This document shows positions 6,462 through 63,447 of a stretch of DNA of 64,000 nt, piece by piece. The notes below the pieces were generated by a model. The model was not told where the DNA came from. It did no database searches and worked only from the letters and a program-made list of their open reading frames with translations. The DNA comes from Clostridiales bacterium UBA7568. Its GTDB lineage: Bacteria; Bacillota; Clostridia; Oscillospirales; CAG-272. The position numbers were made by a program, and so were the translations under genes. Within the stretch, counting starts at the first letter, position 1; the number at the start of each line of letters is the position of its first letter. Location of the stretch: positions 373,205 to 437,204 of the forward strand of contig DLLG01000004.1 in the NCBI GenBank assembly GCA_002479075.1. The letters run 5' to 3'.

Positions 6462-7221
6462 AAATATAAAAAAGATATATAATCCCGGTTCAGTTACGGA
6501 AATGTGCGTTTTTGACGGCTTCAACCTGACTGTTAAAACAGGGGAGTTCGTTTCGATTGTCGGCAGTAACGGCAGCGGAAAAACCTCAATGCTGAATATT
6601 ATCTGCGGCAGCATACCCGTTGAGGGAGGGCGTATTCTCATAGACGGAAAGGACATTACCCGCCTTTCGGAATACAAACGTTGCGCATTTATAGGCAGGG
6701 TGTATCAGAACCCCGCCTTCGGCGTTTGTCCGGAGCTGACCGTGCTTGAAAATATGTCCCTTGCCGACTGCAAAGGCGGGAGTTTCGGGCTTTCAAGCGG
6801 AATAAACAAGCAGAGACGCGGGTTTTACAGGGAAGAGCTCTCTCGTCTCGGGCTTTCGCTCGAAGACAAGCTGAATGTCAAAATGGGCGCGCTTTCGGGC
6901 GGACAACGACAGGCAGTCGCGCTGATAATGGCGACGATGAAGCCGATAGATTTTCTTATTCTTGATGAGCACACAGCCGCTCTCGACCCGAAAACGGCTG
7001 ATGTGATTATGGAGCTGACGGACAAAGTCGTCAGAGAAAAAAATCTGACGGCAATGATGGTAACTCATAACCTTCGCTATGCCGCAGAATACGGCGACAG
7101 GCTCATTATGCTTGATAAGGGGCATATCGTCATCGACAGGAGCGGGGAAGAGAAAAAAGATACCGAGGTCGGCGATATTCTGAAGATATTCAATGAGATA
7201 AGCATTGAATGCGGCAACTGA
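6448..7221 (+). CDS. ABC transporter ATP-binding protein (COG1101 type)
   Basis: ORF 6394..7221 trimmed to ATG 6448 (MLTLENIKKIY). Walker A GSNGSGKTS, signature LSGGQRQAVAL, Walker B FLILDEHTAALD. Overlaps the permease stop. Confidence 0.9.
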   Translation: MLTLENIKKIYNPGSVTEMCVFDGFNLTVKTGEFVSIVGSNGSGKTSMLNIICGSIPVEGGRILIDGKDITRLSEYKRCAFIGRVYQNPAFGVCPELTVLENMSLADCKGGSFGLSSGINKQRRGFYREELSRLGLSLEDKLNVKMGALSGGQRQAVALIMATMKPIDFLILDEHTAALDPKTADVIMELTDKVVREKNLTAMMVTHNLRYAAEYGDRLIMLDKGHIVIDRSGEEKKDTEVGDILKIFNEISIECGN

Positions 7222-7408
7222 GGGGGAAATGTTGACAGGCCGGGGCGGATATTGTATAATAAAGGTATCAAAGCTGTAAAGGGGAAGACAGAAATGAAAA
7301 AGATATCCGGAATTCTGAAATTGACGCTGGCAGTATGCCTGGCCGTCGGAACGACGCTTGCAATGATCGCTTGCGGGGTAAACAATTCGCGGGGAAGCTC
7401 TTCGGGGA
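7222..7408 (+). repeat. copy 1 of a 187-bp promoter + 5'UTR + lipoprotein signal-peptide module
   Basis: Near-identical to 8286-8472. Contains TTGACA 7232-7237, 17-nt spacer, TATAAT 7255-7260, an RBS, and codons for MKKISGILKLTLAVCLAVGTTLAMIACG...SSSG. Confidence 0.9.
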
Positions 7409-8259
7409 TCGGGACGGTGAGCACAAGCTCTTCCCTTGAAACCCAAACGGTAGCACCGAGCCAAACGACGTCTCCTGCCGCACAGACCGTAACGACAACC
7501 GCAACTACGACCGTTCCGCCCGTCATTGACGAAAAGCAGAAGACAATAAACAAATTTTTAGCTCTACTCGACGAGATGGCAGAACGCAACGGGGTTGATG
7601 AGATTAGGGAAGTAATGTTAACTTATGCTAATCCAGAGTTGGCCACAAGTGATTATTATCAATTATCATTTGGCTCAAATACTGGGATGTCTAAATATGA
7701 CATATTGGAATATTACATTTTGGATGAAGAAGGTTATAAACAAATTCTATCATCGATGAGATATAATTTCTCCCAAAATATCGCATACAATTTCGGGAAA
7801 GAAGAACTTATAGAAGAATACAAACACTCTAGTTTAGACATCATAAATGACGCAATTGAAACAAAAGAAAGATATAACAAAGACAACCCATATAAATACG
7901 AGATAGATTACGAAAAGAAAAAAGAAAAAGATTTGGCTGAATTCAATGAGTTTTTGGCTAAGGTGAGCGCTGAACATAGCGGGAAGAAAGTATCATCAAT
8001 CACTTTTACTAAAGATGCCAAAGGGTTTAACAGTATGATTTTGTTTTATAAAGAATTAGAACATTTTGAAATTAACTTGAGATCCTATGCTTTAAAAGAT
8101 GAATGGTACGAAACAATTGTGGAAAACTTGTTTGGCGAAGAACAATATAAATCAATTACGGTTGACGAATTGATAAAAAAGTATGATTCCGATGTATTTG
8201 ACTGTATATTGGAATCAATACGCACATACAGACCTGTTGTAAATCCAAACACGCTGTAA
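7294..8259 (+). CDS. lipoprotein of unknown function (Thr/Ser/Pro-rich linker plus AT-rich acidic domain)
   Basis: ORF 7252..8259 trimmed to ATG 7294 (MKKISGILKL..). Lipobox AMIAC. G+C drops visibly after about 7600. Confidence 0.6.
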   Translation: MKKISGILKLTLAVCLAVGTTLAMIACGVNNSRGSSSGIGTVSTSSSLETQTVAPSQTTSPAAQTVTTTATTTVPPVIDEKQKTINKFLALLDEMAERNGVDEIREVMLTYANPELATSDYYQLSFGSNTGMSKYDILEYYILDEEGYKQILSSMRYNFSQNIAYNFGKEELIEEYKHSSLDIINDAIETKERYNKDNPYKYEIDYEKKKEKDLAEFNEFLAKVSAEHSGKKVSSITFTKDAKGFNSMILFYKELEHFEINLRSYALKDEWYETIVENLFGEEQYKSITVDELIKKYDSDVFDCILESIRTYRPVVNPNTL

Positions 8260-8285
8260 TCAAAGGAAGTTGAGTGTGGCAACCG

Positions 8286-8472
8286 AGGGGAAATGTTGAC
8301 AGGCTGGGGCGGATATTGTATAATAAAGGTATCAAAACTGTAAAGGGGAAGACAGAAGTGAAAAAGATATCCGGAATTCTGAAATTAATGCTGGCAGTAT
8401 GCCTGGCCGTCGGGACAATGCTTGCAATAATCGCTTGCGGGGCAAACAATTCGCAGGGAAGCTCTTCGGGGA
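8286..8472 (+). repeat. copy 2 of the 187-bp promoter + signal-peptide module
   Basis: TTGACA 8296-8301, 17-nt spacer, TATAAT 8319-8324. Differs from copy 1 at about a dozen positions, including ATG to GTG at the start codon. Confidence 0.9.
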
Positions 8473-8975
8473 CAAGCATCTCCGAAGCTACGACTACTGC
8501 GCCAACAATAGTTGAAGACCCCAAATTAAGAATTGAAAGAAAAAAAGCATTGATTATTGAAAACATAAATTCTTGCTTTGATAAATATCGTGAACAGTTT
8601 AAAGATGAAGAAGACACTAAAGATATAGTAGAAGGGGATAAATTTATATATTTGGCAAGAGAAGAAGATTCAGAGAACTCTCAAACTTATAGTTTGGATG
8701 TCAATGGTAGCAATTTTGATAAAAAAATTTCAATTATTATTCAACAAATGAAAATATCAAAAGATCAATACAATTATCTTATTGAGACATTCAATGTTGC
8801 TGACAATAAATCTGAATCGTATCTTTACTATCCAATAATTCGTTTTTCAGACGATTATTCCGGTGAATTATCTACGGTATTGGAAATCACCAAAAATATC
8901 GATGAAATTGAAGATGAAAAAGTACTGGATATTATTCTGAATAGTTTTTCAAAGTCACTTTCTCAAGAACAATAA
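8358..8975 (+). CDS. lipoprotein of unknown function, paralogous only in its signal peptide to 7294..8259
   Basis: GTG start at 8358, homologous to the ATG of the first copy. Lipobox AIIAC. The mature part is AT-rich and unrelated to the first protein. Confidence 0.55.
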   Translation: MKKISGILKLMLAVCLAVGTMLAIIACGANNSQGSSSGTSISEATTTAPTIVEDPKLRIERKKALIIENINSCFDKYREQFKDEEDTKDIVEGDKFIYLAREEDSENSQTYSLDVNGSNFDKKISIIIQQMKISKDQYNYLIETFNVADNKSESYLYYPIIRFSDDYSGELSTVLEITKNIDEIEDEKVLDIILNSFSKSLSQEQ

Positions 8976-9030
8976 GACTGACAGATAGTTACTTAAATCA
9001 TAACTCAAAAGACTTAAACTCAACTCAAAC

Positions 9031-9062
9031 CCCTGAAATTGGCCAACCTTTCAGGGATTTTG
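9031..9062 (+). terminator. rho-independent terminator after the lipoprotein pair
   Basis: Stem ccctgaaa (9031-9038) / tttcaggg (9049-9056), followed by attttg. Confidence 0.55.
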
Positions 9063-9104
9063 ACTTGAGCGCGAAAAATGTCGGCAAATATTTGAAAAAA
9101 TTTA

Positions 9105-9133
9105 TTGACAAACGCTGTCTTTTGTGATATCAT
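9105..9133 (+). promoter_or_regulatory. promoter of the tRNA-Leu / tRNA-Met pair
   Basis: TTGACA 9105-9110, 17-nt spacer ending in TGA (extended -10), TATCAT 9128-9133. Confidence 0.6.
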
Positions 9134-9157
9134 AATCAGGCAGGCAGCGGAAAACGT

Positions 9158-9246
9158 GCCGGAATGGCGGAATTGGCAGACGCCCGGGACTTAAAATCCC
9201 GTGAGGTTCACCCCTCGTACCGGTTCGACCCCGGCTTCCGGCACCA
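9158..9246 (+). tRNA. tRNA-Leu (anticodon UAA), type II with long variable arm, CCA encoded
   Basis: Acceptor gccggaa / ttccggc, anticodon loop cTTAAaa, T arm ggttcgacc, 3' ACCA. Confidence 0.9.
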
Positions 9247-9253
9247 ATAGTAT

Positions 9254-9331
<78 letters not shown>

Positions 9332-9333
9332 AA

Positions 9334-9473
9334 CAAAAAACAGCCCGTCGGGCTGTTTTTTTGTTTTCTTTGCGGTAAAGAAAAGGGATTTGAACGGGCT
9401 CGGTAGTGAATGAGGCGCCTGCGGCGCGTCAGAGCCGAGCCTGACCGAGCGGCGGCGAGCCGCGAGAATTCAA
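9334..9473. repeat. A-type ~140-bp repeat, copy 1 (terminator hairpin plus structured core)
   Basis: Matches 14740-14878 except at roughly ten positions. Contains the motif ctcgg-TAGTGAATGA-hairpin-TCAGAG-ccgag at 9399-9439. Confidence 0.9.
9335..9362. terminator. hairpin terminator after tRNA-Met (A run / T run, usable on either strand)
   Basis: aaaaaa-cagcccg-tc-gggctg-ttttttt. Confidence 0.75.
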
Positions 9474-9491
9474 ATCCCACCTCCGCAACCA
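9462..9491 (+). repeat. duplicate of the 3' end of the initiator tRNA (T loop + acceptor 3' strand + CCA)
   Basis: ttcaaatcccacctccgcaacca (9469-9491) is identical to 9309-9331. The preceding 7 nt are similar but cannot form a T stem. Confidence 0.9.
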
Positions 9492-9558
9492 TTGAACAGG
9501 TCCCAACTTTCCGACCACCGTAATACGGAGTCGGCAGTTGGGACTTTCGTTTATATGT

Positions 9559-9759
9559 CTATATGTTTTCAGACTCCGTTTCAAATTGAAGCGGAGTTTT
9601 TATGTCCAATTTTCTGTGCGGACGCTCTTCATTGAAAAAATGAATGTATTCTTTGACGACTGCTTCCAATTTAAGCGGTGCTTGATATATTGCGTGATTG
9701 CGTTCATAGTACTTTATAACGGCATCTTTGAATTCTTGCGTGTGGATTTTGGGTGACAT
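9559..9759 (-). pseudogene. C-terminal remnant of an IS3-family (rve) transposase
   Basis: ..LEAVVKEYIHFFNEERPHRKLDIKTPLQFE resembles the conserved C-terminal tail of IS3 OrfB proteins. The ORF is only 66 aa with no catalytic domain upstream in frame. A long hairpin (9500-9546) follows it. Confidence 0.5.
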
Positions 9760-10259
9760 TTTGACCTCTCGGTGATTAATATATCACACAGGAGAGATAC
9801 TGTCGGTTCAGCAGTTGTAAAAAACAACTCCATAATCAAAAGAGCTTTCTGAGCCAGAATATGTACGATGCTGATCGCACCTTCATACTCTCGCAGAATT
9901 TGTGCAACAATCTGTTGCACAAATTCTATGACAGCATCGTCCGTCAAATGGTGGAATGCATCAAGGTATATGCCAATAAGTACATCGAGGTTATCTTCGG
10001 CGGCGGGTATGCGGTGGAAGAAACGGTGGAATAAGTAAAAAAGCAACCTGTACCGACAAGATGGTCGATACAGATTGCTTTTTTCATATTGGAGCGGTCC
10101 TATATAACGCAAATACTCTCCGGCAACGGTTTGGGTCTTGCCATTAAAAGATAAATTGTGGATCTGCACGGAAAAACGATTGGTATTCCCCAATCTGATA
10201 AAGAAGTATGGTTTATTAGGTGTGGTTGCCTTCGGGGGATAATCAATATACAATATCAA
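9714..10259 (-). pseudogene. 181-aa ORF of unknown origin, probably a gene fragment
   Basis: TTG start with no SD, overlaps the IS3 remnant in another frame, and I recognise no motif. Kept only because a 181-codon ORF in lower-GC DNA is unlikely by chance. Confidence 0.25.
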
Positions 10260-10351
10260 AACCAGTGTAGCATATCGGCGCCTACGCTATGTTTTTCTTC
10301 GTTATATTCTTAAAATTCAGAAAACAGTCAAATTCTATTTTCGAAAATCTA

Positions 10352-10380
10352 TTGACAACCTTCATTGACGATAGTATAAT
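10352..10380 (+). promoter_or_regulatory. consensus promoter of the MarR-ABC exporter operon
   Basis: TTGACA 10352-10357, 17-nt spacer, TATAAT 10375-10380. Confidence 0.7.
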
Positions 10381-10424
10381 AATGAATGTTCTAATATTAG
10401 AGTTTCTATGATTGGAGGGTGAAT

Positions 10425-10892
10425 ATGAATAATTGGAACTTCACAGCGTCCAGGATGTTCAACAGTGCGAACCGATTTATTGAAGCGTATCATACTGCGC
10501 TTCAGCCGATCTGCAAGGATACGGGGCTACCGCCTATGGCTGTTGATATTCTGATGTTTCTTGCAAACAATCCAGACAGCAATACGGCGGGAGATATCTG
10601 CCGGTGTCGCGGACTGAAAACCGGAATCGTATCGGTACATGTTGACCGACTTGTTAATGAGGGACTGCTTCTGCGGCAGGATATTCCGGGTGACCGGAGA
10701 AAAACACGGCTCGTCTGCACGGAAGCAGCAAACGGCGTCATTGAAAAGGGTCGCGAGGTGCAAAAGAACTTCGCGCAAAGGCTACTCGTCGGGATGTCGG
10801 ACACGGATATTGAAGTATTCCAACACTGCTTGACCGTTCTCGGCGAAAATATTGACGAGATCCGCAAAAACGGGTTTTCAACGAAAGAATAA
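10425..10892 (+). CDS. MarR family transcriptional regulator
   Basis: ATG 10425 follows GGAGGG. Winged-HTH region PMAVDILMFLANNPDSNTAGDICRCRGLKTGIVSVHVDRLVNEGLLLRQDIPGDRRKTRL. Confidence 0.85.
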   Translation: MNNWNFTASRMFNSANRFIEAYHTALQPICKDTGLPPMAVDILMFLANNPDSNTAGDICRCRGLKTGIVSVHVDRLVNEGLLLRQDIPGDRRKTRLVCTEAANGVIEKGREVQKNFAQRLLVGMSDTDIEVFQHCLTVLGENIDEIRKNGFSTKE

Positions 10893-10908
10893 AAAATAGG
10901 AGATAACT

Positions 10909-12663
10909 ATGTTCAAGTTACTGAAAAATATGCGCCGGAAAGAAAAGATGATGGCGTTGATTTGTCTTTTATTTGTTGTGGTTCAGGTTTACTTTGACCT
11001 GCGTCTTCCGGATTATATGACCGAGCTGACTATGCTCATCAAAACCTCCGGCACCACATCGGATATTGTGAATGTCGGGTTGAAAATGCTCGGTTGCACG
11101 ATGGCGAGCGCCGTACTTGCGATCGCCTGCGGCTTTCTTGCCGCAAAGACCGCATCCGGCTTCAGCTTTGCCGTGCGAGACAAACTGTTCCGCCATGTCA
11201 TTGACATCGGCAGCGAGGAAATGCAAGACTTTTCCATTCCAAGCCTGATTACCCGAACCACCAACGACATCACACAGATTCAGATGATTGTTGCAATGGG
11301 ACTGCAAATGATGATAAAAGCACCCATTATGGCAGTATGGGCAATCATCAAGATTCTCGGAAAGAGCTGGGAACTTTCTGCCGTAACTGCCGCATTCGTT
11401 GTGGTGCTGTTCGTTACGGTCTTGCTGATTATGAGCACTTGTATTCCGCGTTTCCGCCTTGTGCAGAAAATGACCGATAAAATCAACCGCGTTGCCCGTG
11501 AAAACCTGACTGGCATCAATGTGGTACATGCATTCAACGCCGAAGATTTTCAGAACGAAAAGTTTGACGGTCCGAGCCGCGGCATGATGGAGCTGCAAAT
11601 GAAAAACCAAAAGCTGTTTGCGCTGGTGCAGCCGACGATGATGCTTGGAATGAACGGGCTGGCGCTGGCGATCTATTGGCTCGGTGCGGCGCTCGTGAGC
11701 AATATCGCGGTCACCGATATGAGCGCCCGGCTTACGATGTTCAGCGAAGTGTTGGTATTCAGCACCTATGCGACCTATGTTGTGATGTCGTTCATGATGC
11801 TGGCGATGATCTTCATGCTGCTGCCGCAGGCACAGGTATCTGCGGAGCGTATCAATGAGGTGCTGAATCGCAGCGCCTCGATCCGTGAGGGCAGCATCCG
11901 AAACGGGAAAGAAACCGGAACGGTTGAATTTCGGAATGTGTCTTTTCGCTATCCCCATGCATCCGAGGATGAACTGACCGATATTGATTTTAAGGTGAAC
12001 AAGGGTGAAACCTTGGCGATCATCGGTGCGACCGGCAGCGGCAAGACCACCTTGGTCAGCCTGATTCCGCGCTTTTATGACGCAACAAATGGCGAGGTGT
12101 TGGTAGACGGCGTGAATGTCAAAGACTATACATTTGACGCACTGTACGATAAGCTGGGATATGTCACGCAGAAAGCGGTTCTGTTCTCCGGGACCATACA
12201 GGATAATGTGCTTTTCGGTGAAAGTGCCGACGATGCGGACGGGACAAGGCTGAACGACGCAATCGAGCTTTCGCAGGCAAAGGAATTCGTTGACAAATTG
12301 CCTGAAGGTACGGAATACGAGATCGCACAGCTCGGCCGCAATGTGTCCGGCGGTCAGAAACAGCGCCTTTCCATTGCCCGTGCGCTTGCACGAAAGCCCG
12401 AAATTCTGATCTTTGACGACTCGTTCTCGGCACTTGACTATCGAACCGATGCAAAGCTGCGCGAGGGCTTGAATGAACAGCTTCACGGAACCACAAAGAT
12501 CATCGTCGCTCAGCGTATCAGCACAATCCGCCACGCAGACAGAATCATCGTTCTTGACCGCGGTGAGATGGTCGGAATGGGTACACACGAAGAACTGATG
12601 CAGAACTGCGAGGTCTACCGTGAAATCGCCACATCGCAGCTCAGCGCATCCGAGCTTGCATAA
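10909..12663 (+). CDS. ABC transporter ATP-binding/permease protein (half-transporter, multidrug-exporter type)
   Basis: N-terminal 6-TM domain. Walker A GATGSGKTT, signature VSGGQKQRLSIARAL, Walker B ILIFDDSFSALD. Confidence 0.9.
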   Translation: MFKLLKNMRRKEKMMALICLLFVVVQVYFDLRLPDYMTELTMLIKTSGTTSDIVNVGLKMLGCTMASAVLAIACGFLAAKTASGFSFAVRDKLFRHVIDIGSEEMQDFSIPSLITRTTNDITQIQMIVAMGLQMMIKAPIMAVWAIIKILGKSWELSAVTAAFVVVLFVTVLLIMSTCIPRFRLVQKMTDKINRVARENLTGINVVHAFNAEDFQNEKFDGPSRGMMELQMKNQKLFALVQPTMMLGMNGLALAIYWLGAALVSNIAVTDMSARLTMFSEVLVFSTYATYVVMSFMMLAMIFMLLPQAQVSAERINEVLNRSASIREGSIRNGKETGTVEFRNVSFRYPHASEDELTDIDFKVNKGETLAIIGATGSGKTTLVSLIPRFYDATNGEVLVDGVNVKDYTFDALYDKLGYVTQKAVLFSGTIQDNVLFGESADDADGTRLNDAIELSQAKEFVDKLPEGTEYEIAQLGRNVSGGQKQRLSIARALARKPEILIFDDSFSALDYRTDAKLREGLNEQLHGTTKIIVAQRISTIRHADRIIVLDRGEMVGMGTHEELMQNCEVYREIATSQLSASELA

Positions 12664-12676
12664 GGAGGGATGAAAA

Positions 12677-14455
12677 ATGAAGAAAAAAGACAATCAAAAA
12701 GGCATCCGTTCCGCCATTCCGAGAATATCCGGCTATTTGCGTTCCAGCATGGGAATCATTATCGTCGCCTTAATCCTTGCGGCACTCAGTGCCGTTATGA
12801 CAATCATCGGTCCTGATAAGATCGGTCGGATTGCAACGCTGATGTCGGATGGTATTACCGGCAGTATCGACCTTGCGGCAATCGCAAAAATCGGTATTTC
12901 TCTTGCAGTCATCTATATACTCAGCGCACTTTTCAGCTTTATTCAGCACTACACGATGTCTGTCGTCACTCTGAAAATGTCCTACCGTATGCGCGGCGAG
13001 CTGTCTGAGAAGATCAACAAAGTACCGCAGAAGTATTTCAACACCACCTCGCAGGGTGACATTCTCAGCCGCATCACAAACGATGTGTCCACTTTGCAGC
13101 AGGGGCTGACGAACAGTATGCCGACGATCATCAGCGCCGCAACGCAGTTTGTCGGCTGTCTGATCATGATGTTCGTCACCGAATGGCGGCTTGCCCTCAT
13201 TTCCATCGGCGTGACCGTTATCGGTATGTTCCTGACAGTGCTTATCATGTCGAGATCACAGCGTTTCTTCGCAGCGCGGCAAAAGAGCCTTGGTGCGCTG
13301 AACGGGTATGTGGAGGAAATGTATTCCGGTCATGAGGTTGTGCGGATCAGCCGTGCCGAGCGTAAGGTCTGTGCAAAGTTTGACACGCTCAATGCCGCGG
13401 TATACGACGCAAACTGGAAGTCGCAGTTTCTCTCCGGCATGATGCAGCCGCTCATGAACATTATCGGCAACATTGCCTATGTCGCTGTCTGCGTCTTCGG
13501 TTCGGTTCTTGCCATAAACGGCACGATTGAGTTCGGCGTGATCGTTTCCTTCATCCTCTATGTTCGCCTGTTTACCTCGCCGCTGACGCAAATTGCTCAG
13601 GGCATGACCAATATGCAGACAGCATCTGCCTCCGCACACCGCATTTTCGACTTTCTTGAAAGCGAAGAAATGCCCGATGAAAGAGGGAAAACGACCGCTC
13701 TTACCGATGTTCACGGCACGGTCAGCTTTGAGCACGTCCGCTTCAGCTACCCCGATACGCCCGATAAGATAATTATCAAGGATTTCTCCGCCAATGTGCA
13801 TCCCGGTCAGAAGGTTGCTATCGTCGGCCCGACCGGTGCCGGAAAAACAACGATGGTCAACCTGCTGATGCGCTTCTTTGAGATCAACAGCGGAACAATC
13901 AAAATTGACGGTGTTCCGATCTCCGAAATGAGCCGTGAAAATGTGCATAAGTTGTTCAGCATGGTTTTGCAGGACACATGGCTCTTTGAGGGAACGGTCA
14001 GAGAAAACCTCGTCTATAACATGGAGGGTATTACCGACGCGCAGCTTGAAGAAGTCTGCCGAGCCTGCGGACTGGACAAATTCATTCACACGCTGCCGCA
14101 GGGTTTTGACACCGTTCTTTCTGAAAGCGCTAGCATCTCCGCCGGACAAAAGCAGCTTCTCACCATCGCCCGCGCTATGTTACAGAATGCGCCGATGCTC
14201 ATTCTTGACGAAGCCACTTCTTCGGTCGATACCCGTACCGAGCTTCTGATCCAGCGGGCAATGGATGAACTCACGAAAGGGCGCACAAGCTTTGTGATCG
14301 CACACCGCCTTTCCACCATCAAAAACGCCGACCTGATTCTTGTTATGTGCGACGGTGATGTGATCGAGAGCGGAACGCACGAGGAACTGATGCGGCGCGG
14401 CGGATTCTACGCCGATCTTTACAACAGCCAGTTTGAGGATAAAATTGCTTCGTAA
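12677..14455 (+). CDS. ABC transporter ATP-binding/permease protein (heterodimer partner)
   Basis: RBS AAGGAGGG. Walker A GPTGAGKTT, signature ISAGQKQLLTIARAM, Walker B MLILDEATSSVD. Confidence 0.9.
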   Translation: MKKKDNQKGIRSAIPRISGYLRSSMGIIIVALILAALSAVMTIIGPDKIGRIATLMSDGITGSIDLAAIAKIGISLAVIYILSALFSFIQHYTMSVVTLKMSYRMRGELSEKINKVPQKYFNTTSQGDILSRITNDVSTLQQGLTNSMPTIISAATQFVGCLIMMFVTEWRLALISIGVTVIGMFLTVLIMSRSQRFFAARQKSLGALNGYVEEMYSGHEVVRISRAERKVCAKFDTLNAAVYDANWKSQFLSGMMQPLMNIIGNIAYVAVCVFGSVLAINGTIEFGVIVSFILYVRLFTSPLTQIAQGMTNMQTASASAHRIFDFLESEEMPDERGKTTALTDVHGTVSFEHVRFSYPDTPDKIIIKDFSANVHPGQKVAIVGPTGAGKTTMVNLLMRFFEINSGTIKIDGVPISEMSRENVHKLFSMVLQDTWLFEGTVRENLVYNMEGITDAQLEEVCRACGLDKFIHTLPQGFDTVLSESASISAGQKQLLTIARAMLQNAPMLILDEATSSVDTRTELLIQRAMDELTKGRTSFVIAHRLSTIKNADLILVMCDGDVIESGTHEELMRRGGFYADLYNSQFEDKIAS

Positions 14456-14706
14456 AATCGAATTGAAACACAGTCAAGGCGACATAGGCTCACAGATGCT
14501 CCCTGTGAGTCTAACGAAAAAAACAAGCGTTGAGACCGACGCAAACCTTGGATATCGGCACTTGCTTTTTCCTTTTGTTCAAAGGAAGTTGAGATATCTT
14601 TTTCGGTTGACTGCGTTTTTCCGCCTTTCTTATTTCTGCCGATCAAAATCAGTGAAAAAAGTATCAAAAAGCACCGAAATCCCTTATATCATAAGGATTT
14701 TCAGGT

Positions 14707-14740
14707 GATATCTTTTTCAGCGGTGCGATACAAACAAAGC
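14707..14740. repeat. E-box, copy 1 (34-nt conserved box preceding a terminator hairpin)
   Basis: gatatctttttcagcggtgcgatacaaacaaagc compared with 17341-17375 gatatctttttcagtagcgcgattcaaacaaaagc. A third partial copy, gagatatctttttcgg, lies near 14600. Confidence 0.8.
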
Positions 14741-14878
14741 AAAAAACAGCCCGTCGGGCTGTTTTTTGTTTTCTTTACCGCAAAGAAAAGGGATTTGAAC
14801 GGGCTCGGTAGTGAATGAGGCGCCTGTGGCGTGTCAGAGCCGAGCCTGACTGAGCGGCGGCGAGCCGCGAGAATTCAA
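14740..14878. repeat. A-type ~140-bp repeat, copy 2
   Basis: Direct repeat of 9334-9473. The small hairpin ctttaccgcaaag (14773-14785) is the exact reverse complement of ctttgcggtaaag (9368-9380). The motif is at 14804-14844. Confidence 0.9.
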
Positions 14879-14908
14879 CCCCTTTTCAAATTTTAACTTG
14901 TTACATAT

Positions 14909-15050
14909 GTGCTTCTGTTTTGCGTGCGATGGGTATGAATGCACAAAGACAGGGTTATGAGCCCGAAGGGCGAGTAACTCGGAGGGGGAGGCGGTAGTGA
15001 ATGACAGCCTTGGAGGGCTGTCAGAGCCGCCGAACCGACCGCAGCATTTT
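14909..15050. repeat. D-type ~142-bp repeat, copy 1
   Basis: Matches 17391-17534 with about five differences. Carries ggcgg-TAGTGAATGA-hairpin-TCAGAG-ccgcc (14990-15031). Carries gggttatgagcccga (14952-14966), the exact reverse complement of the initiator tRNA anticodon arm at 9281-9295. Confidence 0.9.
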
Positions 15051-15073
15051 CCTATGCAGAGAAAATGCAAGAA

Positions 15074-15192
15074 CGTGAGGTTCAAATCCTTCTCGCCTGC
15101 GGGCTCGGTCACCGTACTGCTCTAAAGTGCCAAAGGGCACTTTATTCACCACCGTACGGCCGTTCCGCCTTGCTCCACTACCTCCGCAACCA
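15074..15192 (+). pseudogene. split copy of the initiator-tRNA 3' half (T arm ... acceptor 3' strand + CCA) interrupted by about 84 nt
   Basis: cgtgaggttcaaatcc (15074-15089) is identical to 9302-9317. acctccgcaacca (15180-15192) is identical to 9319-9331. The intervening 15090-15173 contains the hairpin aaagtgcc-aaag-ggcacttt. Confidence 0.8.
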
Positions 15193-15226
15193 AAAAATCC
15201 TCACTCATATGAGTGAGGATTTTTTT
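15192..15226. terminator. strong bidirectional terminator
   Basis: aaaaaa-tcctcactc-atat-gagtgagga-tttttt. Lies downstream of the split tRNA fragment (+) and of the hydrolase gene (-). Confidence 0.8.
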
Positions 15227-15300
15227 ATTACTCTTTGTTTTTCGCTCCTTTTAGCGCCCGTTTTTCTGAGGCGGAAAGTGCGATGATTTTACGCACCTTT

Positions 15301-16317
15301 TCATCGTTCTCCTTTAATAAAATTGGCAAAGTTGGAAATCAGCTCGCTTGGAAAATCAACTTGAGTATATATTGACGCAGGGTCTGTGGTGTCGATCCTA
15401 TATCCGAAATGACTTATATCGTCGTATACACATATGGATACGTTTGCTGAATCAGAGAAAAGCACTTGCCACAGCTCAATATCTTCATCGAAGGATTGCT
15501 TGTCAGATTTACTGTTAATGATAAGTGTTTTTATATTAGCGTCAGCAATGTTTTTGGCGGTATCCATTTGATTATAGGACACCCAATAATAATCGCTTGC
15601 GCTGTAATAGTAGTATCCTTTTGTAGAGATAGCTGTTACATTTTTAGCGGCTGTTGCATAAGCGATATAGGACTCTTTATTGGCAGGATCAAGCGCAGAA
15701 TATTGATTGCAAGCGATATCTGCAAGATGCCGTGCAGAGCTGTTGAATAGAATGATTCCGTTAATGTCTTCGATGCTTGCAGCAAGCTCGGCAGCAATCT
15801 GTCCTCCAAGGCTGTGACCGAGTAAATACAATCCCGAAACATTTTGTGATTTCAAGTATTCAACGGCGATATTACAATCATCGAGATACTCTTCTTCGAT
15901 GCCGCACTTTATATCGAATTCGGCAGTATAGCTGAAGGTTCTTTTGTCAACTCGCAGAGAATTGATGCCTTCTTTAGCCAGCCCATCGGCAATATCCTTA
16001 AACGGCTTCAATACGCCGAGAGTTTCATCATAATCATTTGGACCGGAGCCCGCAATTAAAAGCACCGCAGGATGCACATTTCCGTCGTTAATATAGGTAT
16101 AAGCAGCGTTTAACTTATAGCCGTCACTTTTTAAAACAAATTTCTTTTCTTCAATACTGTTGCTTTGGGGGGGAGTACCTTGATCGGGAATATTTGTTGA
16201 TTTATCTGCGCTCGACTCGGTATTATCACTTGTTTCTTTCGTATCGGGCACTTCTGTATTGCATCCGGACAGAACAAAGATACACAAAAGTAAGATAATA
16301 GCTATGAATTTTTTCAT
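15301..16317 (-). CDS. alpha/beta hydrolase lipoprotein
   Basis: ATG 16317 with RBS GAGGTG. Signal peptide MKKFIAIILLLCIFVLSGC carries a lipobox. Nucleophile elbow GHSLGG. Confidence 0.8.
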   Translation of the reverse strand: MKKFIAIILLLCIFVLSGCNTEVPDTKETSDNTESSADKSTNIPDQGTPPQSNSIEEKKFVLKSDGYKLNAAYTYINDGNVHPAVLLIAGSGPNDYDETLGVLKPFKDIADGLAKEGINSLRVDKRTFSYTAEFDIKCGIEEEYLDDCNIAVEYLKSQNVSGLYLLGHSLGGQIAAELAASIEDINGIILFNSSARHLADIACNQYSALDPANKESYIAYATAAKNVTAISTKGYYYYSASDYYWVSYNQMDTAKNIADANIKTLIINSKSDKQSFDEDIELWQVLFSDSANVSICVYDDISHFGYRIDTTDPASIYTQVDFPSELISNFANFIKGER

Positions 16318-16322
16318 TCGTC

Positions 16323-17024
16323 TCACCTCGTATTCAAGTCATAATATCCAAGCCAAAGTCCGTCAATTTTCCCACCGTGGAATACGTATGTGATTTTAAG
16401 ACCAAGTTTTGAATATCTGACAAAGCAATATAATTTGTTTGAAAATCTATCATCCGCAACTGTTCTGTCAACCGAAAGATATTCACCAAGTGGGGCTAAT
16501 GTATCCTTACGCACTACAATATATACATCTTTCGGCATATATTCTGCCAAGTGAGGACTTAAATACTCGTAGAGAGTATCGGTAGCTCCGCTTAAAATAG
16601 CGTCTGTGCAAATTCGCGCGATTTCTTTTTCTTCGGTATTCATTACGGAAGAAAGTTGCCAATCCTCAGCAAAGATGTCTTTACCGGATTCAAGCGCGGA
16701 TAAAGCTTCATTCAAGAGGTTGATTTCGCGTATGCGAGATTCAATAGAGGCGTATATTTCCGCACGTTTGGAAAGGACTGCATCTTTCAAATCTATTCCT
16801 TTGGTTTGCAACTCTGCAATTGCCTTTACGGATAGTCCCAATGTACGAAGAACAAGAACATTTTTAATACGAGAAATTTGTTTTTCGGTATATTGTCGGC
16901 GAGATGAGATCCCAACGGTCGTACTTTGAATGATACCTTTTTCTTCATAAAAGCGAAGTGTTCTTGATGTGGTGTCAAGCATCTTGCAAACTTCTGTAAT
17001 ATCGTATAGAGATTTTTGATACAT
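16323..17024 (-). CDS. MerR family transcriptional regulator
   Basis: N-terminal HTH YDITEVCKMLDTTSRTLRFYEEKGII, followed by a coiled-coil and an effector domain. RBS GGGGGTGAGGA. Confidence 0.85.
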   Translation of the reverse strand: MYQKSLYDITEVCKMLDTTSRTLRFYEEKGIIQSTTVGISSRRQYTEKQISRIKNVLVLRTLGLSVKAIAELQTKGIDLKDAVLSKRAEIYASIESRIREINLLNEALSALESGKDIFAEDWQLSSVMNTEEKEIARICTDAILSGATDTLYEYLSPHLAEYMPKDVYIVVRKDTLAPLGEYLSVDRTVADDRFSNKLYCFVRYSKLGLKITYVFHGGKIDGLWLGYYDLNTR

Positions 17025-17041
17025 ATCCTCACCCCCTCTGT

Positions 17042-17072
17042 ATTATATCACTTGACGCAGCGTCAATGTCAA
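17042..17072 (-). promoter_or_regulatory. MerR-type promoter with 19-bp spacer filled by a perfect palindrome
   Basis: On the minus strand, TTGACA (17072-17067), a 19-nt spacer, then TATAAT (17047-17042). The spacer contains TTGACGC-t-GCGTCAA (17052-17066), a 7-1-7 palindrome. Confidence 0.7.
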
Positions 17073-17340
17073 GTGAAAATATTACTTTAATAGAGCTTTC
17101 AAGTATAGAAAAACTATTGACAATACCGAACCTTCGCTAAAATGAAAAAATAGTAAGCCGGCGCCTGCTTCCGGTACTATTATATCACAAAGTAGGGAGG
17201 CATTCCTGGGATATATGAGATTAACTGCTGGCTAAAAAACATAGCAAAAGGACAATTGACGCCGTGGATAAAGCGTGCGAGGGCTGTGTAGCGAACCTAA
17301 AAATGGCAGGTATTCGGTAATGCCTTCCGGATTTGAAAGC

Positions 17341-17375
17341 GATATCTTTTTCAGTAGCGCGATTCAAACAAAAGC
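17341..17375. repeat. E-box, copy 2, followed by hairpin 17371-17398
   Basis: See 14707-14740. The hairpin here is aaagcacc-gtcgaaaggga-ggtgcttt. It differs in sequence from the 14741-14767 hairpin but sits in the same position. Confidence 0.8.
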
Positions 17376-17390
17376 ACCGTCGAAAGGGAG

Positions 17391-17534
17391 GTGCTTTTGT
17401 TTTGCGTGCGAGAGGGTATGAATGCACAAAGACAGGGTTATGAGCCCGAATGGCGAGTAACTCGGAGGGGGAGGCGGTAGTGAATGACAGCCTTGGAGGG
17501 CTGTCAGAGCCGCCGAACCGACTGCAGCATTTTT
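17391..17534. repeat. D-type repeat, copy 2
   Basis: Direct repeat of 14909-15050. The motif is at 17473-17514 and the antisense anticodon-arm segment at 17435-17449. Confidence 0.9.
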
Positions 17535-17574
17535 CTCAAATCTCTTGACAAACGAACGGTAGGTAGGTATAATA
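17528..17574 (+). promoter_or_regulatory. consensus promoter block, copy 1 (shared with 31830-31876)
   Basis: TTGACA 17545-17550, spacer aacgaacggtaggtagg (17 nt), TATAAT 17568-17573. About 47 nt are nearly identical to the block upstream of the YoaP-like gene. Confidence 0.75.
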
Positions 17575-17617
17575 TATAGATGAGTGATGCTCAATAAACT
17601 ATTTTGGAGATTGTGCT

Positions 17618-18238
17618 ATGGAAAAAGGAAACACCAAACAGGAAATTCTGGAGGCGGCGCTTGACCTGTTTTCAACACAGGGATTCGAGGCGACATCTGT
17701 TTCGCAAATCGCAGATGCGGTTGGTATACGCAAGGCTTCGCTTTACAGTCATTTTGCAAGCAAGCAGGAGATTTTAGAATCGTTAATGACGCAGGTTCTG
17801 GAGCAATACAATAAACATTCGATTTTTATCCATACCGATTGGGATAACGCTGCTTTTGCCGAAGCCAAGCAAAGTTTATCGGCTGAAGAAGTTGAACAAT
17901 TGGTTTTTACGCAGATCCGCTATATTTTGCACGACCCTTTGGTAAGCAAAGCCCGTAAAATGCTGACAATAGAACAGTTTCGTAATGCGCAAATGGCAGA
18001 GCTCCAGACCAAACAGAATTACGCGAATGTTATGAAATATTTTACCAACCTTATGCGTTTTTTCATTCAACGCGGGAAATTGAAAGACTGCGATGCGGAA
18101 ATTATGGCGGCGCAGTTATGCCTGCCGGTTTCCGTCTGGATCAATCTTTGTGATCGTGAGCCGGAGCGCGAGGACGAAGTTATAGAGCTTGTCGGGCGGC
18201 ACATACGGCAGTTTTTTGAAATGTATAAGGAGCAATAA
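17618..18238 (+). CDS. TetR/AcrR family transcriptional regulator
   Basis: N-terminal HTH ILEAALDLFSTQGFEATSVSQIADAVGIRKASLYSHF. Confidence 0.9.
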   Translation: MEKGNTKQEILEAALDLFSTQGFEATSVSQIADAVGIRKASLYSHFASKQEILESLMTQVLEQYNKHSIFIHTDWDNAAFAEAKQSLSAEEVEQLVFTQIRYILHDPLVSKARKMLTIEQFRNAQMAELQTKQNYANVMKYFTNLMRFFIQRGKLKDCDAEIMAAQLCLPVSVWINLCDREPEREDEVIELVGRHIRQFFEMYKEQ

Positions 18239-18990: not shown

Positions 18991-19005
18991 CGAGGATAAA
19001 TCAGA

Positions 19006-19638
19006 ATGGGTATTTTCAAGGAGAAAACAAAAGACAGGAATATGCAGATACGAAAAATATGGCTGATCGCTGCAATTGTTGTAGTCATCCTGTCAATTGT
19101 CGCGGCTATTAGCTTTCTTGCATACATAAGCCCGCCGAAAGACGAGGTTGAATCCTTTAATTATCCGCCGGAATTCTTCTGCGCAGGCGCAGAGAACCGT
19201 ATTGACTACCAGACAGACGGAAAATGCGCAGCCTATGCCGCCGCTTATCTGATACGGCATTTCGGAGAGGAGGCGGACGGGGAAGAACTGTTTCGGGAAT
19301 TGAAACGACCGTTTGGCTTCGCTTCTGCAAACAGCATAGCGGATATTCTGAGGCGGCGCGGGCATCGGGCAAAAGCCTGCCACGGAAGCATTGACACATT
19401 GAAGCAGCGGCTGACAGAGGGGAATCCGATCATCGTTTTCATCAGAATTTCGGGAGATACGCACTATGCTGTCGTTGTCGGCTATGACGAGCAATATGTT
19501 TATCTGGCGGATTCTCTTGCGGAAAACACCAATGCGTCGGAGGAGCAATACAATCGTGTGTTGAGGGCGGAAGATTTTGAAGCCGTATGGAAAACGGGAA
19601 CACTGCTTCCCGACAACATTTATATCATATTCTTCTAA
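19006..19638 (+). CDS. membrane-anchored C39-like cysteine peptidase domain protein
   Basis: N-terminal TM segment. Candidate catalytic Cys (DGKCAAYAAAYL) and His (GDTHYAVVVGYD) are in the order seen in Peptidase_C39-like proteins. Confidence 0.6.
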   Translation: MGIFKEKTKDRNMQIRKIWLIAAIVVVILSIVAAISFLAYISPPKDEVESFNYPPEFFCAGAENRIDYQTDGKCAAYAAAYLIRHFGEEADGEELFRELKRPFGFASANSIADILRRRGHRAKACHGSIDTLKQRLTEGNPIIVFIRISGDTHYAVVVGYDEQYVYLADSLAENTNASEEQYNRVLRAEDFEAVWKTGTLLPDNIYIIFF

Positions 19639-63372: not shown

Positions 63373-63447
63373 CGGGATGTAGGGTAACGGTTACCCGCTT
63401 GCTTTGGGAGCAAGTTCAAGCAGGTTCGACTCCTGTCATCCCGACCA
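63373..63447 (+). tRNA. tRNA-Pro (anticodon UGG), CCA encoded
   Basis: Acceptor cgggatg / catcccg, anticodon loop ttTGGga, T loop ttcgact. The D stem gggt/accc is somewhat atypical. Confidence 0.8.

Follow-up and report, generated by a model that had tools for sequence, protein, structure and literature searches.

The transfer RNA (tRNA)-linked repeats (TLRs) of Escherichia coli have been known since 1978, most of them without a function, and their literature reportedly includes Egan and Landy (1978) and Rudd (1999). One to five TLRs per locus stand behind tRNA or ribosomal RNA genes, often between two terminators and with an 18-19 bp copy of a 3′ end; RrB is transcribed by read-through and processed, and excision by tRNA-processing enzymes has been shown for RrA, RrB, and RrF (PMC8144298). 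The present analysis concerns a stretch of 64,000 nucleotides from Clostridiales bacterium UBA7568 (assembly GCA_002479075.1, contig DLLG01000004.1, positions 373,205 to 437,204 of the forward strand), here called the window, in which a pair of 140-bp direct repeats behind an initiator tRNA gene brackets a MarR-ABC-ABC gene block. A first-pass annotation, made from the sequence alone, had described this arrangement as a cassette delimited by att-like repeats.

Both repeats belong to a family of short modules, or units, that stand behind tRNA genes in the same genome and in other Oscillospirales. The reading preferred here, with a probability of about 50%, is that the units are resident tRNA-linked modules and that the cassette region was formed by insertion or recombination at them. 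On the best reading the units are resident modules like the TLRs of E. coli, and they would act as a recombination and insertion hotspot. Literature searches, whether by sequence words or by topic, returned no account of this family, the paper on E. coli TLRs alone being close.

The repeat pair and its family

Aligned across 140 nt, positions 9334-9473 and 14740-14878 differ by six substitutions and one indel in a run of T, where the first-pass annotation had counted roughly ten differing positions, and a repeat search gave 95% identity between 9357-9473 and 14762-14878 (117 nt). Each copy opens with a terminator hairpin, as had been described, and the small 13-nt hairpin at 9368-9380 (CTTTGCGGTAAAG) recurs at 14773-14785 in exact reverse complement, which bears out the local flip reported earlier. 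Flipping of the 5-nt hairpin loop explains three of the six mismatches. The remaining three are C-to-T changes in the second copy, of which one gives a G:T pair in a stem and one alters a conserved junction base, and because of these changes the second copy (A′) appears to be decaying. A loop inversion of the same kind was seen in the relative G010 (contig C20, L249), where near-identical terminators at 14300-14340 and 19000-19040, around a hydrolase-MerR/IS3 region, differ by an exact 4-nt loop flip (GAAA/TTTC).

A unit generally opens with a terminator and an inverted T-arm copy; a conserved three-helix core (P2-P4) comes next, and the unit closes with the T-loop-to-CCA part of the neighboring tRNA, repeated in direct orientation. 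In the first copy, unit A, the 23 nucleotides at 9309-9331 are duplicated without mismatch (23/23) at 9469-9491, and the terminator, the small hairpin, and GGGATTTGAA mirror the tRNA 3′ end, forming one long imperfect palindrome with the tRNA tail. GGGATTTGAA sits ∼85 nt 5′ of the tRNA-end copy, and the two strands are predicted to pair as a closing helix, P1, that encloses P2-P4.

The genome of the window (G000; 1.83 Mb, 21 contigs) holds 14 cores at 10 loci, four of the cores lying in the window. The tRNA-linked units follow the genes for tRNA-Met, Arg(ACG), Arg(CCG), Ser(GGA), Gly(CCC), Glu(CUC, two in tandem), and Val(CAC), and for transfer-messenger RNA (tmRNA), and they are always co-oriented with them. 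At seven of the 10 loci the unit lies 64-109 nt past a co-oriented tRNA or tmRNA gene, and at the others it comes after a tRNA-end relic or a block of cargo genes; one contig-10 unit, for example, trails a decayed tRNA-like tail. An apparent recombinase-like tail ahead of the unit at C10:53570 was not confirmed by BLAST and is not claimed. Of the tRNA and tmRNA genes listed above, all but tRNA-Met have the same module without cargo, largely the genome-wide dispersal that the first-pass annotation had named as telling against its own interpretation. Of its att-like cassette, the bracketing by long direct repeats stands, and the idea of att sites specific to this cassette does not, the modules being dispersed at 10 loci and mostly cargo-less.

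The closing helix is tailored to the local gene. Its variants read ATTTGAA behind tRNA-Met, GGGAATCGA behind tRNA-Glu, GGGAAGCGGA behind tRNA-Gly, GGAGAATCGAA behind tmRNA, and GGGCTCGAA behind tRNA-Val, and both strands bear the T-arm variant of the local tRNA in every tRNA-linked copy. P1 strands of the same unit form on average 8.0 contiguous Watson-Crick pairs, as against 5.2 when the strands are drawn from units of different tRNA types. For tRNA-Met the tRNA 3′-end copy measures 23 nt, for tRNA-Gly 22 nt, and for tRNA-Glu 17 nt, and in some copies a second, longer module is nested within P3.

Beyond this genome, 12 of 41 close relatives carry the core pattern, and across the order 53 of 401 genomes do so (29 of 177 genera), with a control pattern at zero throughout. 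At least 119 stretches of a species-representative collection carry it, nearly all from gut or rumen Oscillospiraceae, Acutalibacteraceae, Faecousia, and metagenome-assembled Clostridia, plus a small number of records that bear the labels Lachnospiraceae, Bacteroidaceae, or Synergistaceae. In the genus itself, the motif is present in eight species and absent from three even with a looser pattern, and copy number ranges from none in these three to 16 cores in G006 (1.5 Mb) and 26 in G257 (1.6 Mb). Several relatives' contigs stop at tRNA-Met units, and the repeats therefore seem to break assemblies.

Among 88 instances in other genomes, a short form stands behind the genes for tRNA-Asp, Leu, Gln, Ser, Met, Ala, Lys, and Glu and for tmRNA, and a long form (TAGCGAAGCG...GTGACCGAGCCGCAGCGAGA) has closing stems not derived from tRNA and is never tRNA-adjacent. 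The long form occurs in chromosomal spacers distant from tRNAs and in the viral contigs L064 and L068 (IMG/VR), with two or three per contig, in both orientations, in intergenic spacers, with CCCCTC/GAGGGG-type closing stems and among other GC-rich hairpin repeats. Neither form had a match among PLSDB plasmids or INPHARED/GenBank phages. The tRNA-Glu locus carries one, two, or four cores depending on the species, the four consisting of three simple units and one long-form module. Cores resemble each other across the loci of one genome and differ between genomes; this likeness at different tRNA loci shows copying between loci.

A direct repeat of a tRNA 3′ end that starts in the T-loop is the classical footprint of tyrosine integrases, and the units could be scars (attL/attR plus arm DNA) of repeated islands of T-loop-targeting integrases, with the cassettes as island leftovers. 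The 23-nt repeat does bound an insert from the T-loop on, and in this genome an integrase adjoins tRNA-Ser(CGA) and tRNA-Lys, with integrase fragments past tRNA-Pro. The same core, however, is shared by units at nine or more different tRNA or tmRNA genes, whereas a single target is the rule for an integrase family. In this genome no unit adjoins an integrase, and the lone tyrosine integrase near any of ∼128 motif loci belongs to a prophage that lies in the tmRNA gene, on the upstream side of both the native tmRNA end and the resident unit. Inverted T-arm copies and covarying helices would also be unexpected in decaying arm DNA, and an origin of the units as island scars is very improbable.

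Folding of the units

Across 24 copies, P3 is 97% and P4 98% paired, and 14 of the 20 P3/P4 pairs have changed on both sides, a result reached by none of 500 shuffles, with no slid register coming close. Among 84 distinct P3 hairpins, 54 of which close 3-nt loops, the 601 stem pairs comprise 582 Watson-Crick, five G:T, six A:C, and eight other pairs. An RNA stem is expected to tolerate G:U far more than A:C, and since it would favor the one over the other, the near-equal counts of G:T and A:C point to folding of DNA. Judged by these substitutions, the units appear to behave like DNA folded into a hairpin or cruciform, and not like an RNA gene.

The same data bear on whether the units could be a small RNA, made by terminator read-through and excised by tRNA-processing enzymes that would use the tRNA-end copy as a signal, with only an incidental link to the cassettes. 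Such an RNA would suit the TLR-like anatomy (two terminators, co-orientation with the tRNA, and a copy of its 3′ end), the conserved unpaired motifs, and the strong predicted fold of unit A (-78 kcal/mol; z -5.96 against shuffled controls), and it would make the units a new class of abundant RNA linked to tRNA transcription. It fits poorly with G:T pairs that are no commoner than A:C pairs, with the dominance of 3-nt loops, and with a long form found in both orientations, away from tRNAs, in phage and chromosomal spacers. A promoter scan found no promoter between the flanking terminators of a unit, which would stand behind strong terminators without one of its own. Rfam 15 (E ≤ 1), searched over 8800-15600, 15200-17700, and eight related loci, returned just tRNAs and chance matches, with RtT (RF00391) not among them. 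A small RNA is therefore improbable, though somewhat less so than island scars.

Foreign blocks at the tRNA-fMet locus

Two textbook hallmarks of an initiator (tRNA-fMet) are seen in the gene ahead of the array, tRNA-Met(CAU): its first acceptor pair is non-standard, and its anticodon stem contains GGG/CCC. The gene is trailed by four units in series with two foreign blocks, MarR-ABC-ABC and MerR-hydrolase, in between (Table 1). From 5′ to 3′ the order is tRNA-Leu, tRNA-fMet, unit A, a deleted insertion sequence (IS) of the IS3 family, a serine-recombinase tail, MarR-ABC-ABC, a box with unit A′, unit B, the hydrolase and MerR genes, a ∼100-nt segment with box and unit B′, and a TetR operon. 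Unit A′ stops at TTCAA within the T-loop copy. Unit B is a variant specific to tRNA-Met that is also found behind tRNA-Met in other genomes (L039, L132), and B′ is cut inside its last hairpin by the promoter of the TetR operon. A second repeat pair, 14931-15053 and 17414-17536 (98% identical), brackets the MerR-hydrolase block.

Table 1. Features of the tRNA-fMet locus, with positions counted from the first letter of the window
Feature	Position	Strand	Basis or details
Promoter of the tRNA-Leu/tRNA-Met pair	9105-9133	+	11/12 consensus plus TG
tRNA-Leu(UAA)	9158-9246	+	ARAGORN; Rfam tRNA scores of the two tRNAs 58.8 and 45.9 bits
tRNA-Met(CAU), initiator-type	9254-9331	+	ARAGORN, Rfam; with tRNA-Leu, anchor of the repeat array
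Unit A, complete	9334-9491	+	repeat search, fold, covariation analysis
Unit A terminator hairpin	9335-9361		opens the first copy
Unit A small hairpin	9368-9380		includes TTGCGG, antisense of acceptor strand CCGCAA
Unit A P1 5′ strand	9385-9394		GGGATTTGAA; antisense of tRNA-Met T-loop and T-stem
Unit A P2	9397-9403/9435-9441		
Unit A P3	9412-9419/9423-9430		bounded by conserved internal loop TAGTGAAT / AGAG
Unit A P4	9449-9453/9459-9463		junction TGACCGA before, GAGAA after
Unit A P1 3′ strand and direct copy of tRNA 3′ end	9469-9491		TTCAAATCCCACCTCCGCAACCA
IS3-family element, internally deleted	9493-9823	-	both ends kept; transposase tail alone left (ORF, open reading frame, 9559-9759; rve_2, E 1.3e-7)
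Large serine recombinase, C-terminal tail	∼9837-10034	+	∼65 codons
Bidirectional terminator after recombinase tail	10038-10083		
Cargo 1 promoter	10352-10380	+	12/12 consensus
Cargo 1 MarR	10419-10892	+	Pfam
Cargo 1 halves of a heterodimeric ABC exporter (half-transporter fusions)	10909-12663, 12677-14455	+	Pfam
Unit A′, decaying	14707-14878	+	box GATATCTTTTTCAGCGGTGCGATACAAAC 14707-14738; terminator 14740-14768; flipped hairpin 14773-14785; P1 5′ strand and core
Unit B, tRNA-Met-specific variant	14909-15225	+	terminator 15192-15225
Unit B anticodon-arm copies	∼14951-14990		antisense, then sense
Unit B core			GTAGTGAATGA-hairpin-TCAGAGCC, at variable-loop position
Unit B after core			T-arm copy (CGTGAGGTTCAAATCC), ∼95-nt insert, ACCTCCGCAACCA (acceptor copy follows T arm)
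Cargo 2 alpha/beta hydrolase	15301-16326	-	Pfam
Cargo 2 MerR regulator	16323-17024	-	Pfam
Unit B′, truncated	17240-17536	+	∼100-nt conserved segment; box 17341-17372; terminator ∼17376-17403; unit B copy 17414-17536
TetR operon promoter	17545-17573		

Between the first two copies, the IS3 transposase tail, the MarR gene, the two ABC genes, and the consensus promoter of the first-pass annotation were all recovered, and the ORF fragment it had called unidentifiable proved to be the C-terminal end of a large serine recombinase. It aligns, at 64% identity, with residues 491-546 of a G010 protein that is 566 aa long and has Resolvase, Recombinase, and Zn_ribbon_recom domains. The fragment is a dead remnant that keeps the last ∼55-65 residues and has lost the N-terminal resolvase catalytic domain. 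A decayed copy of the same tail and terminator lies just past the tRNA-Gln unit. In G010 the intact relative is the last of three consecutive serine-recombinase genes (L249, C20, 3805-7926; 513 aa, 291 aa without catalytic domain, and 566 aa) that adjoin a helicase gene and tRNA-Ser(CGA).

The IS3 remnant begins with TGAACAGG immediately after the tRNA-end copy, and its ends are of the TG...CA type (TGAAC at the start, GTTCA at the finish). G010 has an intact homologue (L249:16506-17642; 378 aa; HTH, rve, rve_3, and rve_2 domains), relative to which the window copy is short of ∼940 bp; the G010 region matches 9492-9687 at 96% and 9695-10038 at 83%. The left edge of cassette 1, the MarR-ABC-ABC block with these relics, is thus an IS3 end and not a recombination junction. 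A junction in G010 that joins GATATCTTT to TGAACAGG was considered as a circle or attP junction at the unit edges and rejected, as TGAACAGG is the end of the intact G010 IS3. Both junctions are for that reason IS junctions without target duplications, and they are uninformative on site-specific exchange.

These relics suggest that cassette 1 is the leftover of an element with its own large serine recombinase, later struck by IS3 and then eroded. If the cassette once had its own recombinase and was afterwards hit by IS3, the repeats would be generic landing or recombination substrates and not its att sites. The MarR-ABC-ABC genes themselves do not appear to travel with the repeat: among 300 genomes of the order no homologue comes closer than 74% identity, neither the motif nor a tRNA was found within the ∼1.5-kb flanks of 11 homologous loci (0/11), and movement of the block together with the repeat was rejected on that count.

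Other genomes show other cargo at the same place. Behind tRNA-Met in G004 stand a unit with a 23-nt tRNA-end copy, a 1.8-kb cargo, a box, and, closing the locus, another unit that has a tRNA-end copy too and is followed by a terminator; the two units have identical flanks and different P3 helices, and the cargo has a 514-aa ORF with an N-terminus that is MerR-like by inspection only. In G008 tRNA-Met is plain, with a terminator of its own and no cargo, G002 has half a decayed core, and G001 has yet another cargo. The hydrolase-MerR block recurs, 93.7% identical, in another context in G010, where it and the IS/recombinase-tail block (94-96% for the two) stand side by side in a different order and contig context. 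At tRNA-Gln in the own genome, a unit lies at the far end of a GNAT-like insert of ∼1.1 kb, after the same box and terminator.

This ∼30-nt box (ATATCTTTTTCRG.G.GCGAT.CAAAC) ends three cargo blocks in the own genome and more in relatives. Mostly a terminator and a unit come after it, and the tRNA type of that unit differs between genomes. A conserved non-coding segment of ∼100 nt (GCTGTGTAGCGAACC..GGCAGGTATTCGGTAATGCC..ATTTGAAAGCGATATC) was seen ahead of the box at 17240-17375, before the type B tRNA-Met unit; it also stands before a tRNA-Gln-type unit in G009:C4 (L114) and, with no unit, in G004:C38 (L119). A second version (GGAAATCCCTTATATCA.AAGGATTTTC) lies at 14660-14706 and in G010, and the pre-box segments had no Rfam match.

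No intact recombinase gene was found in the window, in agreement with the first-pass annotation, and PF00589 had no match inside it, the nearest being fragments beyond its end. When all five tyrosine recombinases of the genome and one large serine recombinase from it served as tblastn queries, three homologues were found near the ∼128 motif loci (one tyrosine-integrase and two serine-recombinase). As a separate observation, tRNA-Pro(UGG) lies at 63373-63447 and is followed, past the end of the window, by two minus-strand tyrosine integrase fragments (G000:C2:438574-438922), resembling a decayed island. A 296-aa tyrosine recombinase (C10:2813) was rejected as the linked enzyme, being present in just three species and beside tRNA-Lys like an ordinary island integrase. 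A system of the REPIN/RAYT type was ruled out in this genus: the Y1 transposase (PF01797) is absent from G000 and all seven other motif-bearing species and present in the three motif-less ones.

A rival reading is an integron-like capture platform, in which the P1 hairpin would rebuild a tRNA T arm and an unlinked recombinase of the tyrosine type would exchange cassettes at the T-loop junction, with the tRNA as attI and the units as attC. Several features would suit it: a conserved fold with variable sequence and Watson-Crick-only covariation, a GAGAA/T-loop junction constant in all tRNA-linked copies, units and cargos in series behind one tRNA with different cargo there in a sister species, a copy A′ that stops inside the T-loop copy (after TTCAA), and one conserved box beside the distal unit in four cargos. 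The GC skew of the plus strand is positive, and the tRNA-sense strand would then be the lagging-strand template. Set against this, three recombinase homologues in ∼128 loci leave no linked enzyme; the distribution of C10:2813, a small, non-Xer-like tyrosine recombinase, does not track the motif; most units lack cargo, and such cargos as there are come with promoters and regulators of their own; on its left side cassette 1 is bounded by an IS end; and the direct repeat at tRNA-Gln runs ∼170 nt past the tRNA end, which fits homologous over site-specific recombination. Such a platform is unlikely, if less so than a small RNA. A wider version is slightly more doubtful still: the units would be folded-DNA sites that imitate a duplex T arm, at which a recombinase encoded elsewhere captures, stacks, and swaps promoter-bearing cassettes, and which spread through gut and rumen Oscillospirales and their phages. 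Under site-specific exchange the junction would read box-terminator-unit-TTCAAATCC. An exact deletion-junction pattern and its filled-junction control were both zero in metagenome contigs, and hence uninformative.

In the preferred reading of resident modules, units would multiply in tandem behind tRNA genes, and copying between loci would keep the cores of a genome alike. Tandem modules would offer long homologies, and perhaps a structured site, at which circular or linear foreign DNA bearing a module could recombine; foreign DNA between units would most likely have come in or been swapped by recombination in or near them, for which unit homology would suffice. Elements carried by an IS or a recombinase may also land at the modules.

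Four observations weigh against this reading. Just ahead of the distal unit, one and the same ∼30-nt box closes four different cargos, hinting at a specific end or site over random lodging. Comparison with relatives, which the first-pass annotation had proposed, turned up no empty site and no cargo polymorphism within the species, other assemblies with the flanking genes being 100% identical to the window; since neither was found, a units-first, cargo-later order is one that we infer. Units A and A′ (95%) and B and B′ (98%) are more alike than orthologous units of sister species (79-89%), a closeness that would also fit duplication by the insertion event itself. Finally, resident modules leave unexplained how the inverted T-arm copy is matched to each local tRNA, for which fold-back synthesis at the terminator, repair within the hairpin, and selection are candidates.

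Two further observations were made near the array. A hairpin of ∼36 nt (GGCAGAAAGTGCG.TGATTTTACGC...CTGCC) stands near units at tRNA-Met (15260-15300) and tRNA-Gln (G000:C2:344940-344990), with just these two close copies in the genome. On the 5′ side of the tRNAs, a 204-nt repeat (7205-7408 and 8270-8472, 92.6%) lies at the starts of ORFs 7252-8259 and 8274-8975, which have no confident Pfam match and resemble tandem paralogues with a conserved N-terminal part.

Comparison with known systems

Several described systems share part of this plan. The att sites of tyrosine integrases, of which a T-loop class in tRNA and tmRNA genes was reportedly defined by Williams in 2002, resemble the units in the direct repeat from T-loop to CCA, in the terminator supplied after the tRNA, and in the use of tmRNA. 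Unlike integrase islands, the units are ∼140 bp long, integrase-less, and arranged in tandem arrays, with an inverted T-arm copy and one core for many tRNA species. REP, BIME, and REPIN sequences are likewise intergenic, palindromic, DNA-level elements of many copies, clustered in tandem and patchy among relatives; the units differ from REPIN/RAYT systems in the lack of a Y1 transposase in motif-bearing species of the genus, in their tRNA-specific position, and in their locus-specific closing stem.

The ssoA-type single-strand origins of rolling-circle plasmids are folded DNA with conserved unpaired boxes (PMC5703833, PMC4598088). They share with the units an orientation-dependent fold of ∼100-160 nt, and TAGCGA/TAGTGA in the units loosely resembles CS-6 (TAGCGT). 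GCCGCGAGAATT is loosely like RSB (GCCGAGAAAATT), but the order is reversed, and the units are chromosomal, bound to tRNA tails, and without a PLSDB or INPHARED match. On the loose resemblance of the boxes, their reversed order, and the lack of plasmid or phage matches, ssoA-type origins are not the favored reading.

Integron attC sites have in common with the units a conserved fold with variable sequence, conserved unpaired bases, a serial arrangement between gene blocks beside a fixed site, and a logic specific to strand and orientation. In contrast to integrons, the window has no IntI with attI and Pc beside the array and no linked recombinase, and the closing stem reads TTCAAAT/TTCGAAT rather than the R and L boxes GTTRRRY. 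The arms of the units are tRNA-derived and locus-specific, the cargos bring their own promoters and regulators, and most units have no cargo at all.

The TLRs of E. coli come closest. Like this family, they are gene-less, lie directly behind tRNA genes in tandem, carry a copy of the 3′ end of the upstream gene (17-23 bp here), and are so far mostly functionless. The two differ in that they have no sequence or Rfam (RtT, RF00391) relation, TLRs belong to Enterobacteria and this family to Oscillospirales, the copy here begins in the T-loop, and this family adds an inverted T-arm copy, a covarying multi-helix core, DNA-like evolution, and foreign blocks between units. Of these, the inverted arm, the covarying core, and the cargo are new relative to TLRs. 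The family represents a far larger and structurally richer counterpart of the TLRs in gut and rumen Clostridia. If the units are recombination substrates, they would mark a common path along which small accessory operons, drug-efflux genes among them, could enter and pass between gut commensals without a recombinase of their own, and would also explain the breaks in assemblies at these tRNA loci.

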